Positions 7,456-35,169 of a DNA stretch of 64,000 bases are shown here, in pieces. Origin of the DNA: Candidatus Omnitrophota bacterium (GTDB lineage: Bacteria; Omnitrophota; Gorgyraeia; Pluralincolimonadales; Pluralincolimonadaceae). The notes beneath the pieces were generated by a model. The model worked only from the letters and a program-made list of their open reading frames with translations, searched no databases and was not told the DNA's origin. The stretch's first letter is position 1; the number at the start of each line of letters is the position of its first letter. Location: the NCBI GenBank assembly GCA_041653595.1, contig JBAZFB010000004.1, forward strand, positions 14,757 to 78,756, written 5' to 3'. A program made the position numbers and the translations under genes.

Positions 7456-8354
7456 AGTCGGTAGCCAAGGAATTGAACAAGCAGAAATGGGCGTATATCT
7501 TCATCGGGCCGTCCTTTATCATCTTCGCCGTATTTCTCATAATACCGGTCTTCGCGTCGCTTTACTGGAGCCTGACCGAATACAATATCCTCCAGCCGCC
7601 CAAATTTGTCGGCCTGCAGAATTATATAAATATAATATTCCACGACCCGCGTTTCTGGAAGGCGATGGTAAACACCGCGATCTATGTGGCCGGCACGGTC
7701 CCGACGAGCATAGCTATCTCGCTGCTTCTCGCCGTGGCCATCGACCAGAACATCCGTTTCAAGAACTGGTTCAAGACCTTCTTCTTCATCCCGAGTATCA
7801 CTTCGATTATAGCGATCTCGGTCATCTGGAAGTGGCTTTACGCGAGCGGGAAATACGGCCTCTTTAACCACGCCCTTTCGTCGATCGGGATAGCGCCGGT
7901 AAACTGGCTCGGAGTGGATTGGACGCTTCCCTCGATAATAATCATGAGCGTCTGGGGCGGTCTCGGGTATAACATGATACTCTTCATCGCCGGGCTGCAA
8001 GGCATCCCCCAGGTCTTCTATGAGGCGGCCGAGGTCGACGGGGCGAGCGAATGGGACAAGTTCCGCAACATCACGCTTCCGCTCCTGGCGCCGACGATGG
8101 TCTTTGTCACCATAATGTCGATCATAAGCGCGTTCCAGGTCTTCGACGCGGTATATATCATGACCTACAGTTCGGAGGGGGCGGTGGGCGGGGCGCTCGA
8201 CTGCGCGCTGACGATAGTCGCGTATCTCTACGATACCGGCTTCCAGAGGTTCGCGATGGGCTACGCCTCGGCGCTGGCGTACCTGATATTCTTCGTCCTC
8301 TTCATCGTAACGGTGATAAACATGAGACTGGTCGAGAAAAAGATAGAGTATTGA
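7452..8354 (+). CDS. Carbohydrate ABC transporter permease (MalF/UgpA-like).
   Basis: Multi-TM protein with an EAA loop 'EAAEVDGASEWDKFRNITLPLLAPT'. GTG start overlaps the SBP stop (GTGA). Confidence 0.85.
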   Translation: MKSVAKELNKQKWAYIFIGPSFIIFAVFLIIPVFASLYWSLTEYNILQPPKFVGLQNYINIIFHDPRFWKAMVNTAIYVAGTVPTSIAISLLLAVAIDQNIRFKNWFKTFFFIPSITSIIAISVIWKWLYASGKYGLFNHALSSIGIAPVNWLGVDWTLPSIIIMSVWGGLGYNMILFIAGLQGIPQVFYEAAEVDGASEWDKFRNITLPLLAPTMVFVTIMSIISAFQVFDAVYIMTYSSEGAVGGALDCALTIVAYLYDTGFQRFAMGYASALAYLIFFVLFIVTVINMRLVEKKIEY

Positions 8355-8355
8355 T

Positions 8356-9240
8356 ATGGACATAAACGGGATAAAAGAGCTGGAGAGAAGAGGCACCGTC
8401 AGGGTCGCGAGCAAGAAGAAGCAGCAGCGGACCGCCAACCTCCTCATTTATACTTTCCTGATAGCCGGCTCATTCATAATGATCGTGCCGTTCGTGTGGA
8501 TGATAGTCACGTCATTCAAACCGCTCGACGAGATAAATACCTATCCGCCGAGCTTCTTTATCCGCAAGCCGACGATCGCGGCATACCTTGAACTCTTCAG
8601 GATAATACCGATGGGCAGGTATTTCCTCAACAGCCTTTTTGCCACGACGGCGATCACGCTGGCCAACATATTCTTCTGTTCCCTGGCCGGCTACGCCTTC
8701 GCCAAGCACAGGTTCTTCGGCAGGGACAAGCTCTTCCTCCTGCTTGTGGGTTCGATGATGATACCCTGGCAGGTGAACCTGATACCGAGTTTCGTCATAG
8801 TGAAGAAGTTCGGGTGGCTTAACTCGTTTTACGGGTTGATAATCCCGGCGATGTCCGGCGCGTTCGGGATATTCCTGATGAGGCAGTTCATAATGAACAT
8901 CCCGGATGACCTGATAGACGCGGCTAAGATAGACGGCTGTTCCGAGTTCACTATATACCGCAGGGTGATCTTGCCGCTCATACAGCCGGCGCTCGCCTCG
9001 CTGGCGATATTTACCTTTATGGCCCAATGGAACAATTTCGTCTGGCCGCTCGTGATAATATATTCCTCGAAGATGAGGACGATACCGCTCGCGCTCTCTG
9101 TCCTGAACGGGCAGTTCGGGACGAATTTCGCGATGGTCATGGCCGGCGCCGTGGTCGCCACGGCCCCCGTATTGATAGTATTTATAGCCTTCCAGAAATA
9201 TTTCGTAAAGGGTATAGCGCTTACCGGCCTGAAGGCGTGA
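8356..9240 (+). CDS. Carbohydrate ABC transporter permease (MalG/UgpE-like).
   Basis: EAA loop 'AAKIDGCSEFTIYRRVILPLIQPAL'. Six TM segments. No ATPase gene in the locus, which is usual for CUT1 systems sharing an MsmK-like ATPase. Confidence 0.85.
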   Translation: MDINGIKELERRGTVRVASKKKQQRTANLLIYTFLIAGSFIMIVPFVWMIVTSFKPLDEINTYPPSFFIRKPTIAAYLELFRIIPMGRYFLNSLFATTAITLANIFFCSLAGYAFAKHRFFGRDKLFLLLVGSMMIPWQVNLIPSFVIVKKFGWLNSFYGLIIPAMSGAFGIFLMRQFIMNIPDDLIDAAKIDGCSEFTIYRRVILPLIQPALASLAIFTFMAQWNNFVWPLVIIYSSKMRTIPLALSVLNGQFGTNFAMVMAGAVVATAPVLIVFIAFQKYFVKGIALTGLKA

Positions 9241-11438: not shown

Positions 11439-12464
11439 ATGAAACGTTTCGATAAATCCAGTATAACGATAAAAGACGTGGCAAAACGGGCGGGGGTCGC
11501 TCACTCAACCGTCTCTCTTGTTATGAACGACCGTGAACACGTGTCGCCGAAGCTGCGCGAACGTATCCTTAAGATCGCCAAAGAGATGGGCTATATGCCC
11601 AACCTGGTCGCGCGCAGCCTTATCAGCAAGAAATCGTCCACCGTAGGGGTGGTATTCCCCGAGAACCCGCATTTCTTCACCATAACGTACTTCCTTATGA
11701 TAATAGAGGGCATACAGAACGCCTGTAAGAAATACGACAGGGCGCTCATGTTCTTCAGCCTCGACCAGACCAAAGGCGAGTCGTATTACCAGATATCCCG
11801 CAAATGGCTTATCGACCTCATGGTCATCCTGAACGTCGATTACACAAGAGATATCTCCAAAGACATCCGCGACCTAAAAGACAACGGCATAGCCTTCTCT
11901 TTAGTGACAAAATATAACGGCAAAGAAAAGGTCAACTCGGTCTGCGTCGATAATTTCGAGGGCGTGAGATTGGCCCTGGAATATCTGGCCTCGCAAGGCC
12001 ACAAGCGCGTCGGGTTCATAAGCGGCAACCCGAACTCGGCAGACGGCCCCGAAAGGCTGCAGGCGTTCAAGGTCCTATCCAAAAAGATGGGCTTTGACCA
12101 GGACGAGGAGCTTATCGTCTACGGCGATTTCACGTTCGAGAGCGGCGAGAGGGAGGTCCCGAAGCTCCTGGGGCTCAAGAAACGCCCCACCGCGATATTC
12201 GCGGCGAGCGATTATATGGCCATCGGCGCGATGCGCGTCATGAAAGCGCAGGGTATCTCTATACCCAAAGACATGGCGTTGATGGGGTTCGATAATACCC
12301 TCGAGGTCGCTTATGTCGAACCCCCGCTGACGACGATAAGGCAGCCTCTCCAGGAGATGGGAGAGAAGGCGGTCGACCTCGCAGTCCGCTCCATGAACGA
12401 CGAGAATTTTGAACCCCAGATGGCAGTGATAAAACCCGAACTCATCAAGAGGCAATCATGCTGA
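11439..12464 (+). CDS. LacI-family transcriptional regulator.
   Basis: N-terminal HTH 'ITIKDVAKRAGVAHSTVSLVMND…SPKLRERILKIAKEMGYMPNLVARSL' followed by a periplasmic-binding-protein-like sugar-binding domain. Overlaps the start of the GH2 gene by 7 nt. Confidence 0.9.
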   Translation: MKRFDKSSITIKDVAKRAGVAHSTVSLVMNDREHVSPKLRERILKIAKEMGYMPNLVARSLISKKSSTVGVVFPENPHFFTITYFLMIIEGIQNACKKYDRALMFFSLDQTKGESYYQISRKWLIDLMVILNVDYTRDISKDIRDLKDNGIAFSLVTKYNGKEKVNSVCVDNFEGVRLALEYLASQGHKRVGFISGNPNSADGPERLQAFKVLSKKMGFDQDEELIVYGDFTFESGEREVPKLLGLKKRPTAIFAASDYMAIGAMRVMKAQGISIPKDMALMGFDNTLEVAYVEPPLTTIRQPLQEMGEKAVDLAVRSMNDENFEPQMAVIKPELIKRQSC

Positions 12465-15400
12465 AAAAAACCTTCCCGTATTTTGCGATAGCGGTCTTCC
12501 TGACGTGCGCGTTCGCGCCTGCGCAGGTGTATCCCGCCCAGGACGCGGGACCCGGGGTCCAGCCCCCCACATTCGAGGTAAAAGAGATAGACGGCCTGTA
12601 TCTCCCGTTCCAGAACGGGATACCTTTCCCGTCATGGGAGAGGCAGGACCGCCCTTACATTGAATTGGACGGCTCATGGAGGTCCGAACGGCAGGGCGTC
12701 GACCACAAACTTACGCTTTACAAGAGGACGCCGGAGACCTTAAAACTCCTCGAAGAAGAGAGCGCCGGCAGGTATAAGGCCGATTACGACGACAGCGCGT
12801 GGAAAGAGAAGCCTGTCCCGGGCGTCGAGGACCCGGCCCCTGACAGGTATATGGACGGGGCATGGTACAGGAGGCATTTCACAGTCCCGGCCGACGCGTC
12901 CGGCAAGTACGTTAAGCTCATGTTCGAGGCCGCGAATTATTTTACGGATGTGTGGATCAACGGCAAATGGATAGGCTGCCATGAAGGCGGCTATACGCCG
13001 TTCGCGTTCGATATAAGCCAATACCTTAACTATGGGCAGGATAATGTCATAGCCGTCCGCGTAGATAATATCCCGTGGCTCCCCAACGGAGACGCCTCGT
13101 CCGAAGCGCTCAGTACCAACGACCATAACATAGTCCCTTACGTTACAGGCGACTGGTGGAATTACGGCGGGATAACAAGGAGCGTATATATAGAGATATC
13201 TCCGCCGGTCTCTATTGTCCGCGCCGACATAAAACCGAAACTGGTCAACGAGAAAGATTCCGAACTGACGATAGATGTGACCGTTTATAACCGGAGCGAT
13301 GCCGAATTCGATTCATCCCTTGCCCTCAAGATCGTCCAGGCCAATGTGAAGGACGACAACTTAGAGGAAGCGTCTGTAAAGAAGATAGCTACAGGCAGGA
13401 CCGTCTCCCTGGAAGGCGAAACCTCCAAACAGGTAACGTTGAAGGCGGGCGAGGCGAAGGTGTTCAGGTTCTCGCTGAAATCGGGCGGGCTCAAACCCTG
13501 GTCGCCGGAGTCGCCTAACCTTTACGTGTTACGGGTAACCCTCGGGGACAGGAAAGCAAGATCGGGCGAGCTCTACACCCAGTTCGGCGTCAGGGAGGTA
13601 AGCGTAGATAAAGCCAACGCTAAACTGCTCCTGAACGGCAAAGAGATATTCCTCCGCGGTATCGCGCGCCATGAAGTATTTTACGGAGAGCCCGGCCCGC
13701 TGGTTTACGGCCCGGCCGCGGTCACGGCGGATTTCAAGTACATAAAGGACGCCAACGCGAATTTCGTCAGGACGGCCCATTATCCCAACCAGCAGCAGAC
13801 CTACACTATCGCCGACAGGATGGGGCTTCTCGTATGGGAGGAGATACCCATGTTCTGGTTCACCGGGCCGGAGTTCCTCATCCAGAAAAACGTCCGGGGC
13901 ATCGGAAGGCAAATGTGGTTCGAGATGATATACCGCGATTATAACAGGCCGTCGGTCATAATCTGGGGCGCGTGCAACGAATGCAGCTGGCAGGGGGAGA
14001 GGGCCGCTTTTATAAAAGACCTGCGGGAGAACGCTTATAAGGTCGACGGGACCCGGCTTGTAGCGCAGTCAGCCTCGGGAAGCGATCCTACCGACGCCAC
14101 CCAGAAGGAATGCGATATCATAGGGTTTACGACTTATTACGGTATATTCTACGGCAACTCGTATTTTGCCGATACGAAAGAAGCGCTCAGGAAGACCCAT
14201 GAAGCTTTTCCGGACAAACCGGTCATATCCACCGAATACGGCGTCTGGGCCCGTTACGGGGACCTTGCCCAGGAAGCGTCGCAGGTCGAAGTGGCGAAAG
14301 ATACCTTCAAGGCTTTCAGGGACTTCCCGTTCGTCGCCGGCGCGACATGGTGGACGATCGCGGATTGGCACACGATGATCAACGAGCCGGAGGTTATGGG
14401 CACTATGACGATCGACAGGAAATTCCAGAAGCCGGTATATTTCCAGCTGCAGCGGCAATATGCCTCGCTTTTAGGCGACCTGGCGGTCGAGCTTAAAGAA
14501 CCGAAGGAAGAAGCGGTCTTGCAGGGAAAAGCCGGTATATCGGCCGAGATAAAAGGGGAAGAAAAGCCCGAGGCGGTGGAACTGATGGTAGAAGGGAAAC
14601 TCTTGGGCCGGCTATACCAGAAGAAAGACCTTTACCGGATGGAATTGGACACGTCAAAACTTCCGGAAGGCAAACATATGCTTATCGTCCGCGCGACCGG
14701 CAAGAAGAGTTATTATGTCTCCGGTTTCGTCCGGGTCATCGTAGATAATATAGACGAACTTCCTGCGGTCACTGTCAATCTCAAAGATAACGACGCAGTT
14801 ATAGGCAAAGTCTCGCTGAAGGCCGTCGCGGCCGACGACAGGGGCATCGCCTCGGTCACTTATTCCGTCGACGGGGGAGAGCCCAAGCAGATGGAAGGCA
14901 TAGGCGAGGGAAACTACCAGGCGGTATGGGACGCCTCGCAGCTTCCCGACGGCTCTACTCATGATATTAAATTCATAGTGACGGACACGGGCAGCCAGAC
15001 CTCCGGGGCAACGGCCAAAGTAACTATCGATAATAAGCCGGGCAAGTATGCGGAGTTGCCGTTCGACCACGACTGGATCTCATGGAACACAAGCCGCAAT
15101 GACGGGACCGGCTATGACTTCCCGGCGGAGGAACTGCCGGACTCGAATTCCGAGTTCATATTCAACGGCGCGGAAAAGGTAAAGTTCAAATTCGGCGACA
15201 AGGCCGACGGCCAAAAGAACACCGTCGAATGCGGCAGGCAAAAGATAGCTTTCCCGCCCGGGTATTATACGAAAGTATATATTCTTGGCAGCATGCATGA
15301 CGGCGGTTCGAAACAGACGTTCGTCCTGAACTACACCGACGGGACATCGGCGAAGATCGTGACAGGTTTTTCAGACTGGTGGGGCGGCAATCCCATCTAC

Positions 15401-17011
15401 GGCGAAGAAGCAGCCGTAGTGACGACGTACCATCATGAATCGGCCGGCGACAGGAAGCCCGGCGTGGCGCTTTATATGCAGACGCTCGAGCCGGACAAGA
15501 GCAAGATCCTCTCTTCGATCACCCTGCCCGCGGACAAGAGATTGAATATATTCGCGATCACCCTTGAGGGGGAGGCCTCTAACATTCCCTTGCCCGAGCC
15601 CGCTATAAGTAAGCCCGGGCCCAACTCATCGGTGGGCGGCGCCGTAAAGATCGCGGCGGAGGACAAGCAGGAAAATATAGCGAAGATCGATTATTCCGTG
15701 GACGGGGGAGAGTGGATGCCGATGTCGCCTTCGGCCGCAGGGACTTATACCGCCGAATGGGACACGTCAAAAGTGCCGGGGATAAATCATACGATAAGCG
15801 TAAAGGCGACCGATAAGATCGGGCAGATAAATATAAAAAGCATAGACGTGAGGGTCGTAAATAAGGTCACCATAGTATTCCCGTTCGACGGCGCCAGCAT
15901 ATATAAAATGGCTACTCTTATGGTCGAGCCGAGGGCCAACACGGAAGTCGATAAACTGGAGTATTCAATCGATAACGGCCGGTTTATCGAGATGACGCCG
16001 AATATGGGGCTCTACACGGCCGAGTGGAAGATAGACGAGGGGTATAAGCCCGGCTCAAGCCATACGCTGATGGTCAGGGAGAACGAGAAAGGCGGCGGGG
16101 TCACGATAGACACGGTCAAGGTAACGGCCGATACCGTCAAGATAATGATAGCGGAGCCGGTCAAGGGCCATACGATAAAGGTCGACAAGAACATAAGGGA
16201 CTGGGTAGGCACCGCGCCGGCCCAGGAGAATACGGCGACTATCAGCGGAGGCGAATATATCTGGGAAGACGCCAAAGGCGACGATACCGGAAACGGGCAT
16301 TACACTTATCCGACTAATAAAGCGCTGACTAAAGGCGCCGACCTTAGGGAATTCAGGGCCACATGGGACAACGAGAACCTGTACCTGATGATAAAATGCG
16401 ACCGGCCCGGGGATTTCTGGACGCCTTACAGGATAATAGGCATAGACCAGGACGGCGCTAAAGGCGGCAAGGGCGGCACGCAGGTCCTTGCCCAGGGCGA
16501 CGGGGACCAGGATACCGGCTGTTACGGTAATCTTAAGGTCTCGCCGGATTTGGCGTGCGAATATGTGATAGGGATATTCAATTCCTACAAGGGCCGGATC
16601 TGGGACGCGAAGGGGAGAACTATCGCCCGCAAAGAAGGAGATAGCAACGATACGCAGGGGTTCATGATCGACGACGCCAACTGGAACTCGGTCGAGGTCG
16701 CTATTCCTTTGAAACTCATCGGCGGAAGCCCTGCGGGCCATACGTGGAGGTTCGTTGTGGGGACCGGCCAGCAGGACAACGGAATTTTCAGGAAAGTGGA
16801 TAAGGACGTGTCCGAGTGGCACGGCGGCGGGGGCGAGGCGAACAGCTCGAACCCGTACACTTACGACCTGGCAAGCCCGGACAGGAAGACGCAGGAATAT
16901 GAGTTGAACAGCTACAAGAAGGACGGGGACTCTTCGGACCCGTCGACGTTCGCGGTAATAAACAGATCTTATCTTGCGGTCACTTTCAGCGACGAGGCAA
17001 AGTCCCCGTAA
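12458..17011 (+). CDS. GH2 glycoside hydrolase (beta-glucuronidase/beta-mannosidase/beta-galactosidase-like) fused to Ig-like repeats and a C-terminal CBM9/DOMON-like module.
   Basis: Signal peptide. GH2 sugar-binding domain (…YFTDVWINGKWIGCHEGGYTPFAFDISQYL…). GH2 TIM barrel with acid/base 'IIWGACNECS' and nucleophile 'PVISTEYGV'. The last ~300 aa (from ~nt 16165) are paralogous to the three downstream stand-alone proteins. Confidence 0.85.
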   Translation: MLKKTFPYFAIAVFLTCAFAPAQVYPAQDAGPGVQPPTFEVKEIDGLYLPFQNGIPFPSWERQDRPYIELDGSWRSERQGVDHKLTLYKRTPETLKLLEEESAGRYKADYDDSAWKEKPVPGVEDPAPDRYMDGAWYRRHFTVPADASGKYVKLMFEAANYFTDVWINGKWIGCHEGGYTPFAFDISQYLNYGQDNVIAVRVDNIPWLPNGDASSEALSTNDHNIVPYVTGDWWNYGGITRSVYIEISPPVSIVRADIKPKLVNEKDSELTIDVTVYNRSDAEFDSSLALKIVQANVKDDNLEEASVKKIATGRTVSLEGETSKQVTLKAGEAKVFRFSLKSGGLKPWSPESPNLYVLRVTLGDRKARSGELYTQFGVREVSVDKANAKLLLNGKEIFLRGIARHEVFYGEPGPLVYGPAAVTADFKYIKDANANFVRTAHYPNQQQTYTIADRMGLLVWEEIPMFWFTGPEFLIQKNVRGIGRQMWFEMIYRDYNRPSVIIWGACNECSWQGERAAFIKDLRENAYKVDGTRLVAQSASGSDPTDATQKECDIIGFTTYYGIFYGNSYFADTKEALRKTHEAFPDKPVISTEYGVWARYGDLAQEASQVEVAKDTFKAFRDFPFVAGATWWTIADWHTMINEPEVMGTMTIDRKFQKPVYFQLQRQYASLLGDLAVELKEPKEEAVLQGKAGISAEIKGEEKPEAVELMVEGKLLGRLYQKKDLYRMELDTSKLPEGKHMLIVRATGKKSYYVSGFVRVIVDNIDELPAVTVNLKDNDAVIGKVSLKAVAADDRGIASVTYSVDGGEPKQMEGIGEGNYQAVWDASQLPDGSTHDIKFIVTDTGSQTSGATAKVTIDNKPGKYAELPFDHDWISWNTSRNDGTGYDFPAEELPDSNSEFIFNGAEKVKFKFGDKADGQKNTVECGRQKIAFPPGYYTKVYILGSMHDGGSKQTFVLNYTDGTSAKIVTGFSDWWGGNPIYGEEAAVVTTYHHESAGDRKPGVALYMQTLEPDKSKILSSITLPADKRLNIFAITLEGEASNIPLPEPAISKPGPNSSVGGAVKIAAEDKQENIAKIDYSVDGGEWMPMSPSAAGTYTAEWDTSKVPGINHTISVKATDKIGQINIKSIDVRVVNKVTIVFPFDGASIYKMATLMVEPRANTEVDKLEYSIDNGRFIEMTPNMGLYTAEWKIDEGYKPGSSHTLMVRENEKGGGVTIDTVKVTADTVKIMIAEPVKGHTIKVDKNIRDWVGTAPAQENTATISGGEYIWEDAKGDDTGNGHYTYPTNKALTKGADLREFRATWDNENLYLMIKCDRPGDFWTPYRIIGIDQDGAKGGKGGTQVLAQGDGDQDTGCYGNLKVSPDLACEYVIGIFNSYKGRIWDAKGRTIARKEGDSNDTQGFMIDDANWNSVEVAIPLKLIGGSPAGHTWRFVVGTGQQDNGIFRKVDKDVSEWHGGGGEANSSNPYTYDLASPDRKTQEYELNSYKKDGDSSDPSTFAVINRSYLAVTFSDEAKSP

Positions 17012-17060
17012 AGGGGGAGCGAAAAAGTAATTAAACCGGTACAAAAAGGAGGGCGGTAAA

Positions 17061-17966
17061 ATGGGTAAAGTGGCGGTGCTGTTAGCGGTCGGATTGGTCT
17101 TTTCGTCTGTCTGTTTCGCCGAGGATGCGGTCACAGGGCATACTATCGCGGTCGACAAAAATATAAAGGACTGGACCGGCGTTGCTCCGGAGCAGGAGAA
17201 CTCGGCAGCGGTAAGTAACGGCGAGTATATCTGGAAGGATGCCGCCGGCGACGATACGGGAAACGGGAAATACACTTATCCTTTGGATAAAGCGCTCAAG
17301 AAGGGCGCGGACCTGAAGGAGTTCAGGGTCACGTTCGACAAGGAGAACCTTTATATCCTGATCAAGACCGACAGGCCCGGAGACTGGTGGACCGGCTACA
17401 AGGTAATAGGGATACACAAGGAAGGCGTAGAGGGCGGCACGCAGGTCCTGGCCCAGGGCGATCCCGACGAATTAAATTTTGATTCGGGCACTTTCGCCAA
17501 CCTGAAGGCCGCGCCGGCGTTATCCTGCCAGTATGTGGTGGCGGTCTCCTCGACTTACAAAGGCCGTATCTATGACGAGAAAGGCAAGATGATAGCGCGC
17601 AAAGAAGCGCAACCGGATGATACAGCCGGGTTCAAGGTTGACGATTTCAACTGGAACGCGGTAGAGATAGCGATCCCGTTAAGCCTCATCGGCGGAAGCC
17701 CGGCGGGCCAGACATGGAAGTTCATTGTGGCAGTCGGACAGCAGGATAACGATATTGCCCGTAAGGTACTTGTCGAACAGAGCCAGTATAACGGCGGCGG
17801 CGGGGCCGAGAACGGCGAAAATCCGAGCGCATATGACCTCGCAGGCGCCGATAAGGCTACGCAGGAGAAAGATCTCGGAAGTTATGATCCTAACGCGTCA
17901 GAGGGTGACCTGAAAGGGTTAGCGACGATCGAGAAGTCGTTCTTGACCGTTAATTTCGCGAAATAA
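17061..17966 (+). CDS. Secreted CBM9/DOMON-like carbohydrate-binding domain protein (stand-alone paralog 1).
   Basis: RBS aaaaaggagggcggtaaaATG. Signal peptide. Shares GEYIWKDAAGDDTGNGKYTYP, EFRVTFDKENLYILIKTDRPGDWW, NWNAVEIAIPLSLIGGSPAG and QQDN…GGGG motifs with the GH2 C-terminus. The 'WD..NLY' and 'VE.AIP' pattern is reminiscent of CBM9. Confidence 0.8.
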   Translation: MGKVAVLLAVGLVFSSVCFAEDAVTGHTIAVDKNIKDWTGVAPEQENSAAVSNGEYIWKDAAGDDTGNGKYTYPLDKALKKGADLKEFRVTFDKENLYILIKTDRPGDWWTGYKVIGIHKEGVEGGTQVLAQGDPDELNFDSGTFANLKAAPALSCQYVVAVSSTYKGRIYDEKGKMIARKEAQPDDTAGFKVDDFNWNAVEIAIPLSLIGGSPAGQTWKFIVAVGQQDNDIARKVLVEQSQYNGGGGAENGENPSAYDLAGADKATQEKDLGSYDPNASEGDLKGLATIEKSFLTVNFAK

Positions 17967-17999
17967 GCCCGGCTCATCGTAAACAGGAAGGGCAGACAT

Positions 18000-19019
18000 A
18001 TGAAAAGAGTCCCCTACTTTCTTTTTTATATGTTCGTAGCGATGAGCGCCATCTTTTTTATGGATCAACGGATGGCAGGCGCTTTTTCCGGCCATCCGGT
18101 CCTTGTCGGCGGCGCGACCAACGATTGGATCGGGACGGCGCCGTCCGAACCCAACAGCTGGACGATAAGCGGCGGGGAATATATATGGAAGGACGGCGTG
18201 GGCGATGATACCGGTAACGGCAGTTATACCTATCCTCTCCAGAAGGCCCTGAAAGGCGGATGCGACCTAAGGGAGTTCAGGCTTACCTACGACGACAAGA
18301 ACCTCTACTTATTGATAAAATGCGACCGGCCCGGGGATTTCTGGCCCCCTTTAAGGATAATAGGGATACATAAAGAGGGAATGGTGGGCGGAATGACCGT
18401 CCTGGCGCAGGGCGATGCGAATGAACCGAATTTTGATAAAGGAGTTTCCGCCAACCTGAAGGTCGCGCCCGAGTTAGCCTGCCAATACGTGATCGCTATA
18501 TCATCCTCCGCATATAAGGGCCGGATATGGGATGCCGAAGGAAAACTTGTTGCCCGGAAAGAGGGCGAAAAGAACGATACTCCCGGTTTTAAAGTGGAAG
18601 GCGTAAATTGGAATCATGTCGAAGCCGCGATACCGCTGGAGCTGATAGGCGGCAGTCCGGCGGGACAGGTGTGGAAGGTCATTATCGCCATAGGCCAGCA
18701 GGATTTTGATGTCGCGCGCAAGATAGACGTGGACGCGAGCGAATGGAACGGCGGCGGCGGCGCGCCGAACAATTCCAATCCGTATATCTATGACCTGGCC
18801 GGCGCCGATAAAGAGACGCAGGAGAAAGAATTGGGAAGCTATAACCTTAATGCGCCGTTCGGGGATCCCGACGGATTCGCCGTTATAGCGAAATCATTCC
18901 TGAAAATCGATTTCAGCAATGAGGGTCCCGGTAAATTATCAAGGAGGGGTGAAAATGGCACGGAAACCGGTTTTTTATCTGGCGTTGGCGTCTTTTTTCC
19001 TGCTCTGCTCTCACGCTGA
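18000..19019 (+). CDS. Secreted CBM9/DOMON-like carbohydrate-binding domain protein (paralog 2). Its 3' end overlaps the next paralog.
   Basis: Same motif set (GEYIWKDGVGDDTGNGSYTYP, LIKCDRPGDFW, VEAAIPLELIGGSPAG). Other family members stop right after the '…F(S/A)' motif. This ORF reads ~35 codons further (…SNEGPGKLSRRGENGTETGFLSGVGVFFPALLSR) into the next gene in another frame. Confidence 0.7.
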   Translation: MKRVPYFLFYMFVAMSAIFFMDQRMAGAFSGHPVLVGGATNDWIGTAPSEPNSWTISGGEYIWKDGVGDDTGNGSYTYPLQKALKGGCDLREFRLTYDDKNLYLLIKCDRPGDFWPPLRIIGIHKEGMVGGMTVLAQGDANEPNFDKGVSANLKVAPELACQYVIAISSSAYKGRIWDAEGKLVARKEGEKNDTPGFKVEGVNWNHVEAAIPLELIGGSPAGQVWKVIIAIGQQDFDVARKIDVDASEWNGGGGAPNNSNPYIYDLAGADKETQEKELGSYNLNAPFGDPDGFAVIAKSFLKIDFSNEGPGKLSRRGENGTETGFLSGVGVFFPALLSR

Positions 19020-19920
19020 GGCGGCAGACAGGTACGGGCCTTTTTCCGGCCATTCGATAAAAGTGGACGGTTCGCTGGCCGACTGGGTTGGTGTAGCCCC
19101 GTCCAGCCCTAATACCGGCGCGATAAGCGGCGGCGAGTTCATCTGGAAGGACGCTTCAGGCGACGATACCGGAAACGGCAGCTATACCTATCCAAAGAAT
19201 GCCGCCTTCGCAAGAGCCGCCGACCTGGAGGAATTCAGGGTAACGTGGGACAAGAAGAATGTTTATTTCCTGGTCAAGACGGCCATGCCCGGAGAATGGT
19301 GGGCCCCTTACCGCGTCATAGCCATAGATACGGACGGCGCCGGCGGAGGAGGGAAAGGGATGCAGGTCATACAGCAGGGCTATATTAATGCCGAGTCCGC
19401 CGATTCCGGCACGTTCGGAGAGTTGAAGGTCGACGATGCGACCGCGGCGAATTATGTAATAGCCATAGCGGGCACATACAAGGGGCGCATCTGGGACGAG
19501 AAGGGCAACCTTATCGCAAAGGCCGCCGGTGAAAGCACGGATACCCGCGGTTTCAAGATAAAGGATGCCAATGCTTGCGCAATCGAGATCCAGGTGCCGC
19601 AGAAGATAATCGGGGATCCTGCCGGGAAGATATGGAGATTCATCGTGGCCTGCGGCCTCGAAGACAAGGAGCGCGCCAGGGAGGTCTATAAGGTTGCCGA
19701 CGAATGGCATGGCGGCGGAGGGGAATCCACGACAGCCGAAGACGGCGTAGACCCGGATTTTTATGACCTGGCCGGCCTCGAAAAGACCACGCAGGAGACG
19801 GAGCTTTCGAGCTACGGCTCCAACAAGGCGCCGGGAGACCCCTCGGGTTTCGCGGAGATAAAAAGGTCTTATCTGCAGGTAAAGTTCGCGCCGTATCCGA
19901 ACGCGAAGAACCCGAAATAA
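18955..19920 (+). CDS. Secreted CBM9/DOMON-like carbohydrate-binding domain protein (paralog 3).
   Basis: SD aaggaggggtgaaaATG. Signal peptide MARKPVFYLALASFFLLCSHAEA. Motifs GEFIWKDASGDDTGNGSYTYP and EFRVTWDKKNVYFLVKT. The ORF-track start at 18919 would precede the signal peptide. Confidence 0.8.
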   Translation: MARKPVFYLALASFFLLCSHAEAADRYGPFSGHSIKVDGSLADWVGVAPSSPNTGAISGGEFIWKDASGDDTGNGSYTYPKNAAFARAADLEEFRVTWDKKNVYFLVKTAMPGEWWAPYRVIAIDTDGAGGGGKGMQVIQQGYINAESADSGTFGELKVDDATAANYVIAIAGTYKGRIWDEKGNLIAKAAGESTDTRGFKIKDANACAIEIQVPQKIIGDPAGKIWRFIVACGLEDKERAREVYKVADEWHGGGGESTTAEDGVDPDFYDLAGLEKTTQETELSSYGSNKAPGDPSGFAEIKRSYLQVKFAPYPNAKNPK

Positions 19921-19938
19921 CCGCCGGTTTTTTTCCCC

Positions 19939-19982
19939 TTGACGGGGAGAATTTTTTACGGTATTATATGTTATCGGTAACA
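19939..19982 (+). promoter_or_regulatory. Sigma-70-like promoter (TTGACG, 17 nt spacer, TATTAT) immediately followed by a LacI-type palindromic operator TGTTATCGGTAACA (19969-19982). A weak CCCC/GGGG hairpin with flanking T-runs sits just upstream.
   Basis: TTGACG at 19939-19944, TATTAT at 19962-19967. The 14-mer is a 6/7 half-site palindrome with a central CG and is identical at 13/14 positions to the site at 11373-11386. Confidence 0.5.
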
Positions 19983-19986: not shown

Positions 19987-21012
19987 ATGAAGAAAGTCAC
20001 CTTTAAAGAGATCTCCAGGATAGTCGGCGTGTCCCCGATGCACGTGTCGAGGGCCCTCGCAGGGCACCCTTACGTAAAGGAGGAGCTGCGCCGCGAGATA
20101 TCCAAGGTAGCCAAGAAGCTCAACTACAGCATCAATCCCTTCGGCCGCGGCCTGTCCAAGAATATCCAGATGAAGGCCCGGATGATATGCGTCCTGACCA
20201 AATACGGGAACTTCTTCCGGACCGAGTATTTCGTCAACCTGATAGACGCGATCAGCAGCAATTGCAGGGCGAAGGGATACGACGTGATAATGGCGAGCCT
20301 CACGGACGATGAAAGCGGAAACATAAAGAGGCTCAAGAACCTGGTCAGTTATTATAAGGCGGGCATAATAGAGGGGTTCGTCTTCATCGCGCCGGACCTC
20401 GACGCCGCGGAAGGCTTTTTCCTGCGCGCGGAAAAGGTCAATTTTGTCTGCGCCGGCAGCAGGATAGAAGCGGCTACGAAATATGTCGACGTCGATAATT
20501 TCAGGGCGGGCTCCGAGGTCGGCGGCTATCTTATCCGGCTGGGCCACAGGAGGATAGCTTTTGTGAAAGGCCTCGAGAAGAGGCGCGATAGCCGGGAGAG
20601 GCAGCAGGGTTTCTTGAATGCCCTGACGGCAAGCGGGATCGCGCCGGACGAAGGCCTATTCATTTCCGGCGATTACAGTATTCCCGGCGGGAAGAAGGCG
20701 ACAGCGGAATTGTTTTCGCGCAAGAAGAAGCCGGACGCGATATTTTATGCTAACGACCTTATGGCCTACGGCGGCCTCGAATTTTTCAAGGAAAAAAAGA
20801 TAAGGGTCCCTCGCGAGATCTCTATCGTGGGTTTTGACGACCTCGCTGCGTCGTCTCGGACCGAGCCCCCGCTTACGACCGTGAGGCAACCTTATAAGGA
20901 GATGGGAGAGGCGGTCATGGAGGCCGTATCCCACCCGGAATTCGCTTCAAGGATGATAACGGCGAAATTAATAATAAGGAAGAGCTGCGACAAGCCAAGG
21001 AGAATTGGATGA
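19987..21012 (+). CDS. LacI-family transcriptional regulator (second copy).
   Basis: HTH 'VTFKEISRIVGVSPMHVSRALAGHPYVKEELRREISKVAKKLNYSIN' followed by a PBP-like domain. 4-nt ATGA overlap with the downstream hydrolase gene. Confidence 0.9.
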   Translation: MKKVTFKEISRIVGVSPMHVSRALAGHPYVKEELRREISKVAKKLNYSINPFGRGLSKNIQMKARMICVLTKYGNFFRTEYFVNLIDAISSNCRAKGYDVIMASLTDDESGNIKRLKNLVSYYKAGIIEGFVFIAPDLDAAEGFFLRAEKVNFVCAGSRIEAATKYVDVDNFRAGSEVGGYLIRLGHRRIAFVKGLEKRRDSRERQQGFLNALTASGIAPDEGLFISGDYSIPGGKKATAELFSRKKKPDAIFYANDLMAYGGLEFFKEKKIRVPREISIVGFDDLAASSRTEPPLTTVRQPYKEMGEAVMEAVSHPEFASRMITAKLIIRKSCDKPRRIG

Positions 21013-24000
21013 GGACTACCGCGGGATACAGGATCGGTAACGACAACGAATTCATAATTGAAAATTACAACTATTCCAAGGCCTTTTCGAGTTTCCTGCC
21101 CGGCATAGCCGGCGTCGACGGCATCCCGATGTGGGTCTTTTACGTGAACAGGAACCAGGCGGTATGCAGCCTCGGCATAGAGAGCAAGGACCGCGCGATG
21201 ATGGAATTTCTGCCCGCGAATTTCGCCTACCAGCTGGTCGGGACGCAGGGCTTCAGGACCTTTATCAAGATAATTGGCAAAAACGGTTTTACGCTGTATG
21301 AGCCGTTCAGGGTATACGAGAAAGAAGAGGGGTATATCCCGTCCCAGGTGATGGCTATTACCCCTTATTCCGTGACGCTAAGGGAGGTCCACGAGAAGCT
21401 GGGCATGAGCGTCGAGGTCAGGTATTGCAACGTCGTCCAGGAGCCGTTCCCCGGCCTCATAAGGCAGGTGGAGATAAAGAATATCTCCGGGAGGGCCGTG
21501 AAGATCGAGCTCCTCGACGGGATGCCGCAGGTGATACCCTTCGGGATGGACGATTCCAGCCTGAAGAAGATGAAATACCTCGTCAAATCCTTCAGTTACG
21601 CGGAAAACCTCGGGGAAAAGATACCTTATTTCCATATCAGGACGACCCATGAGGACGGCCCTGAGGTGGCCATGGTAAAGAGAGGCCATTATTACGCGTG
21701 CGTCAGGGTGGAGGGAGGCAAGGCTGAGTTGAAACGGCCCCTTATAGATGCCTCGCAGATCTTCGGAATTAGGAAGGACATGATCCTCCCCTCGCGCTTT
21801 AACGTGAGGTCGAAATTCATTTATGATACTAAGGGCGAACTGACCAGCGGGGAGTTCTCTTCGGCCATGTGCCATGAGGATGCGGCACTCAAGCCTTCGG
21901 AGACGCTCACTTTATACTGCGTCTGCGGCACCCTGGATTCTGTCGGCGGCACGAAAGAGGTGGCGCGCGCCCTCACCGCGGATTTCGCGGAGACGCAGCT
22001 CAAGAAAAACCGGACCGTCATCGAATCGATCATGGGCTCTTCCCTGGTCATAAGCGAAGACGAGAAGTTTGACAGGTATTCCGCCCAAAATTTCCTCGAC
22101 AACGTGCTGCGCGGAGGCTTCCCCCTGACGGTAACGAAAGACAGGAGCAAAGTCTTCTATGTCTATTCCAGGAAGCACGGCGACCTGGAGAGGGATTATA
22201 ACCAGTTCTACACTTCCCCGACCCTTTATTCCCAGGGCGATTCCAATTACAGGGACGTCAACCAGAACAGGCGAAACGACACGTTCTTCAATCCCGACGT
22301 CGGGATGTCCAACATTATCAACTTCATAAACTTCATACAGATGGACGGGTTCAATCCGCAAGGCGTGGACGGAGTGACATTCATATATAAGGGAGACAAA
22401 AAACTTCTCATAAGCCTTTTCGGATCCGGCGCGGAAAAGATGGAGGAGTTTTTCAGGAAGCCTTTCGCCCCGGGCGACATCTTCAAGTTCGCCGGATCCA
22501 ATTCTATCAAGGCCGCCGTATCGAACGGGGAGATGCTCTCGAAGATACTCGAGCGCTCGGACGCCGGGCAGAATTCGCGGCATATCGACGGTTTCTGGAG
22601 CGACCACTGGTCCTATAATATGGACCTCATCGACAGTTTCCTGGCCGTCTATCCGGACAGGAGGAAGGAGCTATTCTCCGGGCGCAGGGATTTCACGTTC
22701 CACGACAGCCCTTACGTCGTCCTGCCGAGGCAGGATAAATACGTCTTGTGGGACGGAAAACCGGTCCAGTTGGGCGCGGTAAAGGTCGACGAGGAGAAGA
22801 GGAAGATGATCGCCGGCAGGAGATCGGAGAAGACGCTCGTCCGCAAAGTAAACGGCAAAGGAGATGTTTACAGGACCGACCTCATCACGAAACTCCTTAT
22901 AATCGCGGTCAATAAGATAAATTCCATCGGGCCGGACGGCTGCGGCATCGAGATGGAGACGGATAAGCCGAACTGGTGCGACGCGCTTAACGGACTTCCG
23001 GGGCTCTTCGGGTCGTCCTCGAACGAGACATTTGAACTGAAGAGGCTGATAACCATGATCTCGAAGAACCTTGGCGGCAAGGCCCTCGAGCTTCCCGAGG
23101 AAGCCGTCGAGGCGATCAGGGATTCTAAAGACGCGCTAAACGGTTATCTCGGCGGGAGACTGGACGATCTCGGCATATGGGACAAACTGACCGCGATAAA
23201 AGAAAATTTCAGGAGAAAGACGAGATGCGGGATAATCGGCAGGCTCATCCCGGTCCCGGCAGACGAAATATCCGGCTACCTTGCGCTCGCGGCAAAGAGG
23301 GTCCAGGCGGCCATAAACAAAAGTTTTGACGAGAAGACCGGACTTTATTCCGGGTATTTTATCAATGTCCCGGCCGAATACGAACAGATCACGGTCACGG
23401 ACAGCGCCGGCAGGGAGGTCCCGAAGGCCAACCACAAGGGCCTGCCGTGCATCAGGGTGATGAAATTCAACTCCCGGACGCTGCCGTTATTCCTGGAGGC
23501 GCAGGTCCACGCGCTGAAGGCGGAAGAGGACAGATCTGTCGCCGCGAGGCTGCACTACAACCTCATGAAGAGCGGCCTGGTCGACAAAAAATTGAAGATG
23601 TTCTCGGTCAATGCCTCGCTTGAAAAGGAGCCGTATGAGATAGGCAGGACCAAGACGTTCAATCCGGGCTGGCTCGAGAACCAGTCGATCTGGCTTCACA
23701 TGGAATATAAATACTTGCTCGAGTTATTGAAGGCCGGGCTTTACAAAGATTATTACGCGAATTTCAAGGACGTCCTCGTGCCGTTCCTGAGGCCAGAGGT
23801 CTACGGAAGGAGCATCTTCGAGAACTCGTCTTTCATCGCGGGCAGCGTCCATCCGGACAAGAAAGTCCACGGACAGGGGTTTTACGCGAGGCTCTCCGGC
23901 TCGACCGCAGAATTCGTCCATATGTGGCTTATAATGATGACCGGAGGAAGGCCGTTTTCGCTCGACGCAAACGGCAAACTGGTCTTCAGCCTCTCCCCGG

Positions 24001-24299
24001 TCCTTAAGGGCGGGATGTTCCTGAAAAAAGACCGCAAGGCGGAGCACTATTCTCCCGAAGGAAAATTGCAGAAAGAGACCGTCAAGAAAGGCACATTGAA
24101 ATTCATGCTGCTTGGCAGCATACCCGTGACTTATATCAATCCCCGGCGGAAGGATATATTCGGGGGCGGCAAAGGGGCTAAGTACGCGCTGACGCTCGAG
24201 GACGGCGCGGTGAAGGAATTCACCGGCAGCGTCCCGGAACCGTATTCGGCCCTTGTCAGGGAAAGAAAAATAAAAGAGATAAAGATGTATCTTGATTAA
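21009..24299 (+). CDS. Large (1096 aa) cytoplasmic glycoside hydrolase/phosphorylase-like protein of the (alpha/alpha)6-toroid type, family unassigned.
   Basis: No signal peptide. N-terminal beta-rich region followed by a helical-repeat region (…LLELLKAGLYKDYYANFKDVLVPFLRPEVYGRSIFENSSFIAGSVHPD…GQGFYARLSGSTAEFVHMWLIMM) typical of six-hairpin glycosidases (GH94/GH65/GH116-like). Confidence in the exact product is low. Confidence that this is a real CDS is high. Confidence 0.55.
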   Translation: MRTTAGYRIGNDNEFIIENYNYSKAFSSFLPGIAGVDGIPMWVFYVNRNQAVCSLGIESKDRAMMEFLPANFAYQLVGTQGFRTFIKIIGKNGFTLYEPFRVYEKEEGYIPSQVMAITPYSVTLREVHEKLGMSVEVRYCNVVQEPFPGLIRQVEIKNISGRAVKIELLDGMPQVIPFGMDDSSLKKMKYLVKSFSYAENLGEKIPYFHIRTTHEDGPEVAMVKRGHYYACVRVEGGKAELKRPLIDASQIFGIRKDMILPSRFNVRSKFIYDTKGELTSGEFSSAMCHEDAALKPSETLTLYCVCGTLDSVGGTKEVARALTADFAETQLKKNRTVIESIMGSSLVISEDEKFDRYSAQNFLDNVLRGGFPLTVTKDRSKVFYVYSRKHGDLERDYNQFYTSPTLYSQGDSNYRDVNQNRRNDTFFNPDVGMSNIINFINFIQMDGFNPQGVDGVTFIYKGDKKLLISLFGSGAEKMEEFFRKPFAPGDIFKFAGSNSIKAAVSNGEMLSKILERSDAGQNSRHIDGFWSDHWSYNMDLIDSFLAVYPDRRKELFSGRRDFTFHDSPYVVLPRQDKYVLWDGKPVQLGAVKVDEEKRKMIAGRRSEKTLVRKVNGKGDVYRTDLITKLLIIAVNKINSIGPDGCGIEMETDKPNWCDALNGLPGLFGSSSNETFELKRLITMISKNLGGKALELPEEAVEAIRDSKDALNGYLGGRLDDLGIWDKLTAIKENFRRKTRCGIIGRLIPVPADEISGYLALAAKRVQAAINKSFDEKTGLYSGYFINVPAEYEQITVTDSAGREVPKANHKGLPCIRVMKFNSRTLPLFLEAQVHALKAEEDRSVAARLHYNLMKSGLVDKKLKMFSVNASLEKEPYEIGRTKTFNPGWLENQSIWLHMEYKYLLELLKAGLYKDYYANFKDVLVPFLRPEVYGRSIFENSSFIAGSVHPDKKVHGQGFYARLSGSTAEFVHMWLIMMTGGRPFSLDANGKLVFSLSPVLKGGMFLKKDRKAEHYSPEGKLQKETVKKGTLKFMLLGSIPVTYINPRRKDIFGGGKGAKYALTLEDGAVKEFTGSVPEPYSALVRERKIKEIKMYLD

Positions 24300-24312
24300 A
24301 CAGGAGGTTTCG

Positions 24313-27087
24313 GTGGAGGAGAAGGTGATCTCTTTCGACAGGAAGAGCATGATCATTAACGGGAAACGCATCATGCTCTACGGAGGGGAATTCCATTACT
24401 TCCGCGTGCCGCACGAACTTTGGGAGGACAGGCTCCGTAAGATGAAGGCGGCGGGGCTTAACCTCGTCGCGACATATATACCCTGGAATTTCCATGAGAT
24501 GAAGGAGGGTGAGTTCGTCTGGGAAGGCGACCGCGACCTCGAGAAGTTCGTGACGCTGACGGAAAAATACGGGTTTTACCTCGCGATAAAGCCGGGGCCG
24601 TATATCTGCGCGGAATGGGATTTCGGCGGGTTCCCTGACTGGCTCCTCGGAAAGGACGTGAAACTGCGCGAAGACGACCCGGAGTACCTCAGGCTTATCG
24701 GCAGGTATTATAAGGAGATCGCCGGGATCCTGCGGCCGCACCTGGTCACAAAAGGCGGCAATATAATCCTATTCCAGATAGAGAACGAATATGACCACCT
24801 GATCGCATTTACCGGCATAAAGAGATACAAGGACGGCGCCCTGCGATACCACCTCAAGCTTTTGAAGATGGCTCGCGAGGCGGGCATAGACGTGCCGGCG
24901 TTCACGGTGGAAGGGAGTTTCCTGAGGAAGAGCGAAATAATCGACGCGAGGACCTATTACCCGAATATCCCGTGGATATGGCTCTGGGAGTTCGACGATT
25001 TCGATAAGGCGATCGAGGCGTCGGTCGCCCAACAGCCGAAGAAGCCGCTGATGATAATGGAACTCGAGACCGGCTGGTTCGCGCAGTTCGGGAAGCCGCT
25101 GTACCAGATAGAGCCGGAGGTCACGAGGGCCATATTAAGGACGGTCATCGCCGAGGGCGCATCCGTCATGAACCATTTCCTGTTCGTCGGCGGCACGACG
25201 TTCCCTTACTGGAACTGCAAGGGCGACTACGGCGGGATAGGCACCTGCACGACATATGACTTCGGCCATTCGCCGCTCAGGGAATGGGGCGAGGTCTCGC
25301 CGACGAAATACCATATGGCCCGCAACACCGCGCAGTTCCTCGATTCATTCGAGGACGTGCTCTTCGGTTCCGAAAAGATAGGTGGAGCGGCGAAGTTTAT
25401 CGACAGCGGGAATACCGTGGCGCTCGTGGACCTGAGAAAGGGCACGGTCAAACCCGACTTCTCCGGGACTTTCGAGAACGTCAAGGTCACCGAGAGGGCG
25501 GGGAAGAGAGGCGGATTCCTGATGGTCCGCAACCTTACCGACGATACGCTCAGGACGCAGATCGAATATCTATCTCCGGCCGGGAAGAAAACCGAAAAGC
25601 TGCCCTTTTCCGGAGACCTTAAGCTCGCTCCCAGGTCCTCATTCCTTTTCCCCATAGATGTCCCTATCGGCGATAAAGGAGTGGTCATCAAGCACTCTAC
25701 CTGCGAACTTCTTTTGAAGAAAGAGATAGGGAGGAACGCGTTTGTCTTCCTCACCGGAAGACCCGAATTTAGGGGAGAGACCTATATCAAGTGCGGTCCC
25801 GTAAAGCCTGCCGTCATCGAAGGCGATTTCGATGTAAAAGGGGTAAAGGACGGCTATATCATCGGGAACGAGAACTCAGGGCTCCGGATAATAAAAATTG
25901 AAGGGGTATTCTTCGTTTTTCTCGACGACAAGACGGCCGCTAAAGTATGGGACGGCGAAGAGACGGTCGCGATAAGCGATTACTACTACATCGAGGACCT
26001 TATTGCCGACGGGCGGTCGATCGAGATAAACGCGCAGGTCAAGAACGGATGCAACCAGCTTACAAGGATATTTACCGCGGTCAGGCCCGGATACGTAACG
26101 ATCAACAAGGAAAAGGCGCCTTTTAAATATGACAAAAAGACCGGGTCGGTGATCTTCAAATACGATTGCGCGGTGGAGGAGCTTCCGAGGATAACATGGC
26201 TCGACTCTCCGCGGTTCATCTCCGACGTCGACGAGAAAGAGCCCGGTTTCGACGACTCGTCTTGGAAGACGATAACCATGCCCAAAGCGCTTGAGCAGGC
26301 CGGCCTGCTCAAGCACGGTTTCATCTGGTACAGGCAGGAGTTCGGGCTTAAGGGGAGGCCGGCGGAATGCCGGGCAAGGATAATAACCAATGACATGGAC
26401 AGGTTCTATGTCTATATCAACGGGGAATTCATCTGGCGCGGGATAGGCAGTCCCGACCTTGATATCTCCGGGGCGGCCAGGAAAGGGAAGAACCTCCTCG
26501 CGGTCAGGTATGAGAACGCCTACCATACCAAGGCGCATCCCCACGAAGGGCCGATAAAAAAACTCAGCGGCATAATGCGGCCGGTAAAGATCAGCGGCAG
26601 GGCGCAGGGAAAGTCCTTCAATATTGTCCTTAATAAATTGCTGGTCCGCGAGAATGCGGGCGGCCTCTTGAAGGGCTATCATGAACCTGAGATCGATGAA
26701 AACGGCTGGAAGGTCTCGCCTCCCGCTAAGAAATACGTATTCGCGAAAGAGATGGGAGAGCTTGTCTGGTACAGGCGGAGGTTCAAGTTCCTGCCGCGCA
26801 AGGGCGGCACCTGCGCGCTCAAGCTCACGATAGACCACGCCTTCGAGAGGTGCGTCATATACCTGAACGGAAGGGCGCTCGGCAAATACGAGTCGGTCGG
26901 TCCGCAGAATGATTTTTATATCCCCGAGCCGTTCCTGCGCGCGGAGAATACTCTGGCTATCCTCGTCGAGGGGCCGGGTTTCCATCCCGTCAAGGGATCG
27001 GGGTTCGTCCCGCCGGTCCTTAAAGACCCCAGGATAGGTTTCTACTATGCGGCCAAAAAGGTGAGCGCGAGGGTATCGGCCTATTGA
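24313..27087 (+). CDS. GH35 beta-galactosidase with C-terminal beta-sandwich domains.
   Basis: GH35 hallmarks: GGEFHYFRVP, YIPWNFHE, 'KPGPYICAEWDFGGFPDWLL', acid/base 'FQIENEYD' and nucleophile region 'MELETGWFAQFG'. Start assigned to GTG 24313 (SD acaggaggt 5 nt upstream). The ORF-track TTG at 24292 is the alternative. Confidence 0.85.
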   Translation: MEEKVISFDRKSMIINGKRIMLYGGEFHYFRVPHELWEDRLRKMKAAGLNLVATYIPWNFHEMKEGEFVWEGDRDLEKFVTLTEKYGFYLAIKPGPYICAEWDFGGFPDWLLGKDVKLREDDPEYLRLIGRYYKEIAGILRPHLVTKGGNIILFQIENEYDHLIAFTGIKRYKDGALRYHLKLLKMAREAGIDVPAFTVEGSFLRKSEIIDARTYYPNIPWIWLWEFDDFDKAIEASVAQQPKKPLMIMELETGWFAQFGKPLYQIEPEVTRAILRTVIAEGASVMNHFLFVGGTTFPYWNCKGDYGGIGTCTTYDFGHSPLREWGEVSPTKYHMARNTAQFLDSFEDVLFGSEKIGGAAKFIDSGNTVALVDLRKGTVKPDFSGTFENVKVTERAGKRGGFLMVRNLTDDTLRTQIEYLSPAGKKTEKLPFSGDLKLAPRSSFLFPIDVPIGDKGVVIKHSTCELLLKKEIGRNAFVFLTGRPEFRGETYIKCGPVKPAVIEGDFDVKGVKDGYIIGNENSGLRIIKIEGVFFVFLDDKTAAKVWDGEETVAISDYYYIEDLIADGRSIEINAQVKNGCNQLTRIFTAVRPGYVTINKEKAPFKYDKKTGSVIFKYDCAVEELPRITWLDSPRFISDVDEKEPGFDDSSWKTITMPKALEQAGLLKHGFIWYRQEFGLKGRPAECRARIITNDMDRFYVYINGEFIWRGIGSPDLDISGAARKGKNLLAVRYENAYHTKAHPHEGPIKKLSGIMRPVKISGRAQGKSFNIVLNKLLVRENAGGLLKGYHEPEIDENGWKVSPPAKKYVFAKEMGELVWYRRRFKFLPRKGGTCALKLTIDHAFERCVIYLNGRALGKYESVGPQNDFYIPEPFLRAENTLAILVEGPGFHPVKGSGFVPPVLKDPRIGFYYAAKKVSARVSAY

Positions 27088-27183: not shown

Positions 27184-27232
27184 TTCTGTAGTACAACTGA
27201 TTACGCAAATGAATAAAAAAGCAGGGAATAAA

Positions 27233-31784
<4,552 letters not shown>

Positions 31785-35168: not shown

Positions 35169-35169
35169 C

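Follow-up and report, generated by a model that had tools for sequence, protein, structure and literature searches.

We analysed a 64,000-nucleotide stretch of DNA from a Candidatus Omnitrophota metagenome-assembled genome (MAG; contig JBAZFB010000004.1, positions 14,757 to 78,756; hereafter the window), which carries on its forward strand a tandem array of four paralogous modules of the DOMON/CBM9-like Glucodextran_C type (Pfam PF09985), one fused to a glycoside hydrolase family 2 (GH2) enzyme and three encoded as free secreted proteins. The GH2 gene (12458-17011, + strand; an open reading frame (ORF) of 1517 aa) ends in copy 1 of the module, which begins at 'KGHTIKVD', makes up the last ~283 residues of the enzyme (aa 1236-1517; 16163..17008, +; PF09985 E 5e-20 and alignment) and aligns over its whole length with the three ORFs downstream. 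These follow on the same strand as copy 2 (ORF2; 17061..17966, 301 aa, E 3e-22), copy 3 (ORF3; 18000..19019, 339 aa, E 3e-22) and copy 4 (ORF4; 18955..19920, 321 aa, E 1e-23). The mature product of copy 2 is a protein of ~30 kDa with an isoelectric point of 4.7. The GH2 enzyme and the three free products are identical to NCBI entries MFA5339030-33 of a Candidatus Omnitrophota MAG, where copies 2, 3 and 4 are MFA5339031.1, MFA5339032.1 and MFA5339033.1 and already bear the name 'glucodextranase DOMON-like domain-containing protein'.

A preliminary description of this DNA had placed four such modules here, one of them fused to the GH2 enzyme, and ORFs, alignment and profile search all locate them where it said; the start that it gave, 16165, agrees with the module start that we map to nt 16163, and the motif skeleton that it quoted (GEYIWKD..GDDTGNG.YTYP, EFR.T.D..NLY, YKGRI.D, GGGG, YDLA, TQE) is present in our four-copy alignment. 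Mean column identity in the four-way protein alignment is 64%, with identities of 58, 58 and 51% when copies 2 to 4 are compared with the GH2 copy; trimmed to the domain only, pairwise amino acid identities among the four are 49-62%. The array is also visible at the DNA level as four in-register copies with a period of 954-970 nt and 60-74% identity. When all six frames of the window were searched with a profile built from the four copies, these four were matched (E 1e-168 to 1e-176), well outside anything that chance would give, and no fifth copy was found. Copy 4 is the most divergent and is a member of the oldest stand-alone orthologue group, which we call type A.

All four copies match Glucodextran_C with 72-84 bits against a cut-off of 22, over profile positions 5 to ~220 of 228; no other Pfam family matched in the module region and the free proteins have no NCBIfam model. 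The founder of PF09985 is the C-terminal domain of the Arthrobacter globiformis glucodextranase (GH15; 1ULV/1UG9). Sequence identity to this domain is 16-18%, and the glucodextranase is barely detected in searches of PDB sequences, where the four-copy profile returned nothing meaningful and a profile from 86 family sequences gave a marginal match to 1ug9 (E 0.23). However, the modules share with the family a score above its gathering threshold, the founding beta-sandwich fold and a GDD.G.G.Y.YP loop that is invariant or nearly so among the 86 sequences and can be aligned with residues 781-820 of 1ug9. For ORF2, an AlphaFold2 model computed from 86 homologues is all-beta and confident (predicted local distance difference test 93.4, predicted template modelling score (pTM) 0.89), and a Foldseek search with it against the PDB returned 1ug9 glucodextranase first (E 3e-8) and then 7uwv (E 5e-6), the carbohydrate-binding module (CBM) family 74 of Ruminococcus bromii Sas6. 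The preliminary description had called the modules CBM9/DOMON-like and had named Glucodextran_C among the families to look for; the PF09985 match, the confident all-beta model and the Foldseek matches together bear this label out, and we found no enzymatic fold with catalytic residues in the module. In the arrangement described here the host enzyme is a GH2 rather than a GH15 enzyme, and the module, unlike that of the glucodextranase, also occurs free and in several copies.

The module has the core beta-sandwich fold of CBM9 and, like CBM74, is a large CBM9-like sandwich with extra sheets. By sequence it is a member of neither family. CBM74 of Sas6 (7UWV/7UWW/7UWU) is a large starch-binding module of 357 residues within a non-catalytic binding protein; it has no detectable sequence relationship to our module, binds alpha-glucan double helices and accompanies GH13 amylases, whereas ours, for which binding is putative, occurs in the company of GH2, GH35 and GH161. 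The CBM9 of Thermotoga maritima Xyn10A (1I82) is 189 aa long, compared to ~283 aa for the module. Sugar binding by both CBM74 and CBM9 has been proven by experiment, and the two are structurally related, CBM74 being an enlarged CBM9-like sandwich that carries several Ca2+ sites (bioRxiv 10.1101/2022.11.20.514607).

Among the 86 family sequences 19 columns are invariant, and 44 columns are conserved across all paralogue groups. The invariant acidic residues, in ORF2 numbering, are E55, D60, D64, D65, D93 and D259, and acidic loops such as GDDTGNG are probably structural Ca2+ sites; the conserved aromatic residues include W38, W58, W110 and W198. None of the 19 invariant or 44 all-group columns holds an invariant His, Met, Lys or Cys, so that there is no conserved pair of haem ligands. 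This makes it very improbable that the modules are redox DOMON domains with haem b or another cofactor, comparable to the gamma subunit of ethylbenzene dehydrogenase, NxrC or the cytochrome of cellobiose dehydrogenase, or that they are cryptic enzymes: even the motif 'GH.I.VD' has another residue, such as Asn, in place of its His in the members from loci L036 and L061, the stronger structural matches are all carbohydrate-related and the operon contains no redox genes. Thus the residues that would define a haem-binding DOMON domain are missing, as are the profiles of S-layer homology (SLH) domains, a reading that we take up below. A histidine brace like that of lytic polysaccharide monooxygenases is excluded because the conserved His is not at the mature N-terminus; it lies 4-11 residues past the probable cleavage sites, falls within the chain in the fused copy and is not invariant. 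We also considered the C-terminal S..L.V.F motif as an outer-membrane beta-signal and rejected it, the Phe not being terminal and the segment being modelled as the final strand of the sandwich.

The enzyme that carries copy 1 consists of a signal peptide, the GH2 N-terminal, Ig and TIM-barrel domains (aa ~100-670), Big_7, an accessory module resembling AziU2 (aa ~868-1040), one or more Big_7 Ig domains and Glucodextran_C; the accessory module was assigned by its PDB matches and the other domains by Pfam. The nearest PDB entries to the catalytic part are beta-glucuronidase (GUS)-like GH2 enzymes, and both catalytic glutamates are kept, the acid/base in NE and the nucleophile in TEYG. However, the NxK motif for glucuronate is absent (window 13358-14560), with 'EVMGTM' aligned to 'YNRKGL' of the GUS enzyme 6ncy. 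Because this motif is missing, the name beta-glucuronidase given by JGI is unsupported, and the specificity of the enzyme is probably not for glucuronides.

The accessory module spans ~180 aa (window 15060-15580; 'LPFDHDWIS...FSDWWGG...HHE...IFA.TLE'), has no Pfam model and resembles the azinomycin proteins AziU2/Azi28 (7wuw/8gs1, E 6e-12). It is present in every GH2 enzyme partnered with a Glucodextran_C module, and we also find it at the C-terminus of a GH92 enzyme (34% identity) and three times in a subtilisin-like protease. An AlphaFold2 model of the C-terminal half of the GH2 enzyme, comprising the accessory, Ig and PF09985 modules, reached a pTM of 0.53 and was confident in the PF09985 part only; the accessory module is poorly modelled because its alignment is shallow. 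Literature searches under the annotation name of the free proteins or under AziU2 yielded nothing useful.

We then asked how firmly the module is tied to this enzyme. One genome per species was scanned and every locus annotated. The close subfamily of the module (at least 43% identity) is found at 28 loci, mostly in Omnitrophota, with a few in MAGs labelled Elusimicrobia, Auribacterota or Verrucomicrobia. The same type of GH2 enzyme, catalytic part plus ~180-aa accessory module, lies directly upstream in 26 of these, and the other two are cut by contig ends. In the reverse direction, a search of metagenome contigs for the accessory module, which used a single peptide pattern and gave a small sample, found a PF09985 module fused or downstream at 7/7 loci. 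Across ~35 loci the module is thus invariably found with one GH2 subtype, either fused to it or just downstream, a strict linkage in both directions that was absent from the preliminary description.

Six species-level genomes encode a GH2 enzyme that ends right after the accessory module ('...HIFAVTLE*', ~1060-1097 aa); behind it stand one or two free copies that have signal peptides of their own, and the fused and separate arrangements are thus related by genuine fusion or fission. A minimal unit, at one locus, consists of LacI, a pseudopilin-like protein, the unfused GH2 enzyme and the module, with unrelated genes beyond. Other Omnitrophota MAGs have, at the same locus, LacI, the GH2-fused module, two or three free copies, LacI, a 1096-aa protein and GH35; in MAGs labelled Elusimicrobia, the free copies are interleaved with genes for ATP-binding cassette (ABC) binding proteins and permeases. 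The number of free copies varies from one to three between genomes. At a further locus (L060), the unfused GH2 enzyme is accompanied, three genes downstream, by a more distant PF09985 protein of 442 aa (6720-8048). In this protein the C-terminal strand motif (profile 291-311) stands ahead of the main domain, at residues 42-62, an order that may reflect circular permutation. Genes for two paralogous secreted proteins of 469 and 445 aa separate it from the GH2 gene.

In neighbour-joining trees of module copies across genomes, the copies group by position and not by genome, with no sign of concerted evolution. Every Omnitrophota locus whose contig extends far enough has an ORF4-type (type A) copy, and this group is sister to the lone free copies of unfused loci. 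A separate clade holds the fused copies, and the free copies of the ORF2/ORF3 type are sister to it; the latter were duplicated independently in at least two lineages, and loci of the Elusimicrobia type expanded separately. Synonymous divergence (dS) between paralogues ranges from 1.2 to above 3 or is saturated. In agreement with the preliminary description, these distances and the clustering by position across genomes indicate that the duplications are not recent. Between orthologues, the ratio of non-synonymous to synonymous divergence (dN/dS) is 0.09-0.20 for the window against the close relative L002 and ~0.05-0.07 for L004 against L005, where dS is saturated, and every copy is shown to be under purifying selection. 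It had also been proposed that the copies diverged in ligand specificity. A few group-specific changes in type A copies, in which the 'NWN' loop lacks its Trp, Q228E has occurred and one residue is deleted, are in line with this and lend it thin support, and the specificities may at most be suspected to differ.

The array is real and old and is built from a known accessory module. Its genes are already annotated, many uncultured genomes conserve it, and as a system it is of a kind already known. A hidden Markov model search of 1.84 billion representative proteins gave 614 clusters at E<=1e-3, of which ~7 are very close (E below 1e-85) and contain free proteins of ~310 aa or GH2 fusions of ~1490 aa. 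Roughly 40% of the top 150 clusters, by reading of their listed lengths, are single-domain-sized, indicating that free PF09985 proteins as such are not rare. The idea that free secreted copies are unusual thus fares poorly, given this share, the occurrence of the array in many Omnitrophota genomes and the existing annotation of the genes. Elsewhere, PF09985 is found in GH57 enzymes, a metallophosphatase and giant surface proteins.

The signals around the genes suggest joint expression. Shine-Dalgarno sites precede all three free copies: AAGGAGG, a strong site, for ORF2; the weaker GGAAGGG for ORF3; and AAGGAGGGG, again a strong site, at 18941-18949 for ORF4. Those of the free copies, ORF2 and ORF4 above all, are stronger than that of the GH2 gene, which would fit a binder made in excess over the enzyme. 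ORF4 most likely starts at 18955 (MARKP..., 321 aa) rather than at the first ATG at 18919 (333 aa), since the former directly follows AAGGAGGGG and the gene calls of relatives agree with it. With this start ORF3 and ORF4 overlap by 65 nt, an overlap that is kept in L002 and absent in L004 and L005; the 33-aa C-terminal extension of ORF3 (EGPGKLSRRGENGTETGFLSGVGVFFPALLSR, window 18918-19019) is an out-of-frame reading of the ORF4 region for the ribosome-binding site and signal peptide. Judged by eye from n-region, hydrophobic core and AxA-like site, each free copy has an N-terminus like a Sec-type signal peptide; so do the GH2 enzyme and a DUF5060 protein that the locus also holds, and the GH161 and GH35 proteins have none. 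The claim that each free copy has its own ribosome-binding site and signal peptide therefore holds up, with the weaker site at ORF3 and with signal peptides recognised by eye. A consensus scan found no terminator-like site on the + strand between GH2 and copy 4, a terminator-like hairpin with T-run directly 3' of copy 4 (19930..19961, +) and a promoter-like site at 19939-19967 ahead of the next gene, a second LacI-family regulator. Taken together, these make the GH2 gene and the three copies look like one transcription unit, which the hairpin at 19930-19961 likely ends.

On balance, and with moderate confidence, we favour the reading that the free modules are non-catalytic glycan-binding partners of this GH2 enzyme that act outside the cytoplasm. 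We infer carbohydrate as the ligand and the periplasm, the cell surface or the medium as the place of action. The array would make up the 3' portion of an operon for glycan utilisation under LacI control; the operon's first gene or regulator is probably the LacI-family gene at 11439..12464 (+; Pfam LacI and Peripla_BP_3), which overlaps the GH2 start by 7 nt and has the same place in syntenic loci. The free, acidic proteins of ~30 kDa would capture or hold polymeric substrate, or keep the GH2 enzyme on it, and the exported enzyme would trim the glycan with their help extracellularly or in the periplasm. Products could then enter through the neighbouring ABC sugar importer (6211-9240), and their breakdown would be completed in the cytoplasm by a GH161 phosphorylase-family protein (21009-24299) and a GH35 enzyme (24292-27087). 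The GH161-family protein is 1096 aa long, has no Pfam match, was identified by its similarity to PDB entries 9qqk (E 5e-194) and 9h8v (E 9e-194) and adjoins the array in most Omnitrophota loci surveyed; GH161 enzymes act in beta-1,3-glucan phosphorolysis (PMC6484121). Our guess from the GH2, GH35 and GH161 families is that the glycan would be a beta-linked galacto- or gluco-glycan.

The surface glycan-binding proteins of the SusE/F type in Bacteroidota offer a parallel: they are non-catalytic, are co-transcribed with glycosidase and transporter genes and often come in paralogous sets. However, their folds are unrelated and they have lipid anchors and work with TonB/SusCD, whereas the locus described here combines plain signal peptides with an ABC importer in a lineage of the PVC group. 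The sole functional hint within PF09985 comes from a GH65 debranching enzyme, whose kinetics suggest that its PF09985 D-domain shares in recognising chains of alpha-glucan (PMC10074034); that domain is fused and in an alpha-glucan context, with direct binding undemonstrated (PMC10074034), whereas the modules here are also free.

Several observations weigh against glycan binding by the modules. None of the four copies has a Pfam CBM9 or DOMON match at E<=0.01, and 7uwv and 1i82 were unmatched when PDB sequences were searched with the four-copy and the 86-sequence profiles, Sas6 being absent at E<=10. Sugar binding has been demonstrated for no PF09985 domain, nor is the family a CBM in CAZy (PMC10074034), so the name CBM should be read as putative for these proteins. 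The presence of PF09985 on a metallophosphatase, which is not a glycosidase, suggests that the module may bind something more general. Finally, the accessory module of the GH2 enzyme could be the real substrate binder.

The fusion and fission of the module support equally well the main rival idea, that the free modules serve the GH2 enzyme as non-covalent subunits or as its scaffold. Through protein-protein contacts with the enzyme or among themselves they would build a hetero-oligomer in the periplasm or at the surface, or a lattice, with a set position for every paralogue and with glycan binding as a secondary task. The two readings are compatible, and we regard the second as possible but doubtful. 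It would account for the Rosetta-stone pattern, in which the enzyme occurs with or without a fused module and a separate copy is always adjacent, and for the survival of this pairing in a minimal two-gene unit without transporter or other glycosidases. The long maintenance of the paralogues as position-specific orthologue groups under purifying selection and the separate expansions to two or three free copies in different lineages point the same way. However, the PF09985 family is not known to oligomerise, and copy numbers of one to three fit dosage or specificity better than a fixed stoichiometry. In the model of the C-terminal half of the GH2 enzyme (pTM 0.53, with its shallow accessory alignment) no rigid packing was seen, a result that favours neither reading.

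The genomes with unfused GH2 enzymes bear also on the SLH reading, in which the modules are cell-envelope anchors that bind the cell's own wall or outer-layer polymer, tether the GH2 enzyme and, when free, coat the layer. Pfam itself describes PF09985 as a 'binding-module, SLH-like', and the module is C-terminal on large extracellular enzymes in archaea and bacteria (GH57; GH53, PMC8447715). We nevertheless consider such a role improbable, since there is no SLH match in Pfam, the fold is a beta-sandwich and the model all-beta rather than helical as in SLH domains, the free copies have no cargo, the GH2 enzyme would be left untethered wherever the module is unfused and the genes lie in a catabolic operon under the control of a sugar regulator.

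In a bolder reading, a distinct subtype of GH2 enzyme would have the free modules as its obligate partners, held non-covalently, and the position-specific paralogues and the enzyme would together form a glycan-capturing machine in Omnitrophota and, going by MAG labels, neighbouring phyla such as Elusimicrobia; we think this rather unlikely. As an accessory module PF09985 is widespread among secreted glycosidases (GH15, GH49, GH53, GH57, GH65 and here GH2), and a function has never been demonstrated for it; a split system of enzyme and binding modules, if true, would give the family its first defined function. The GH2-module partnership with its fusion and fission is a useful experimental handle: nature has placed the same module, fused and unfused and in one to four copies, beside the same enzyme, which allows a straightforward test of whether it binds glycan, the enzyme or both. 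The locus also makes a small contribution to the scant knowledge of polysaccharide use by uncultured Omnitrophota.

Beyond the array, the second LacI-family regulator (19987..21012, +; Pfam) heads the GH161 and GH35 genes. Upstream of the ABC transporter lie genes for a PEP-CTERM protein (1854-2603), an 809-aa pseudopilin (2660-5089) that resembles the K component of type II secretion systems and contains a LamG domain, and a secreted protein of 359 aa without a Pfam match (5090-6169). Genes of the prepilin type (N_methyl) also stand directly before GH2 in L007 and L061, and pseudopilins may be linked to this glycan system. On the far side of GH35, the region 27209-39597 encodes the large and small subunits of glutamate synthase and a set of proteins similar to an Mrp antiporter combined with either a membrane-bound hydrogenase or complex I; their functions are of the housekeeping type and have no relation to the array.

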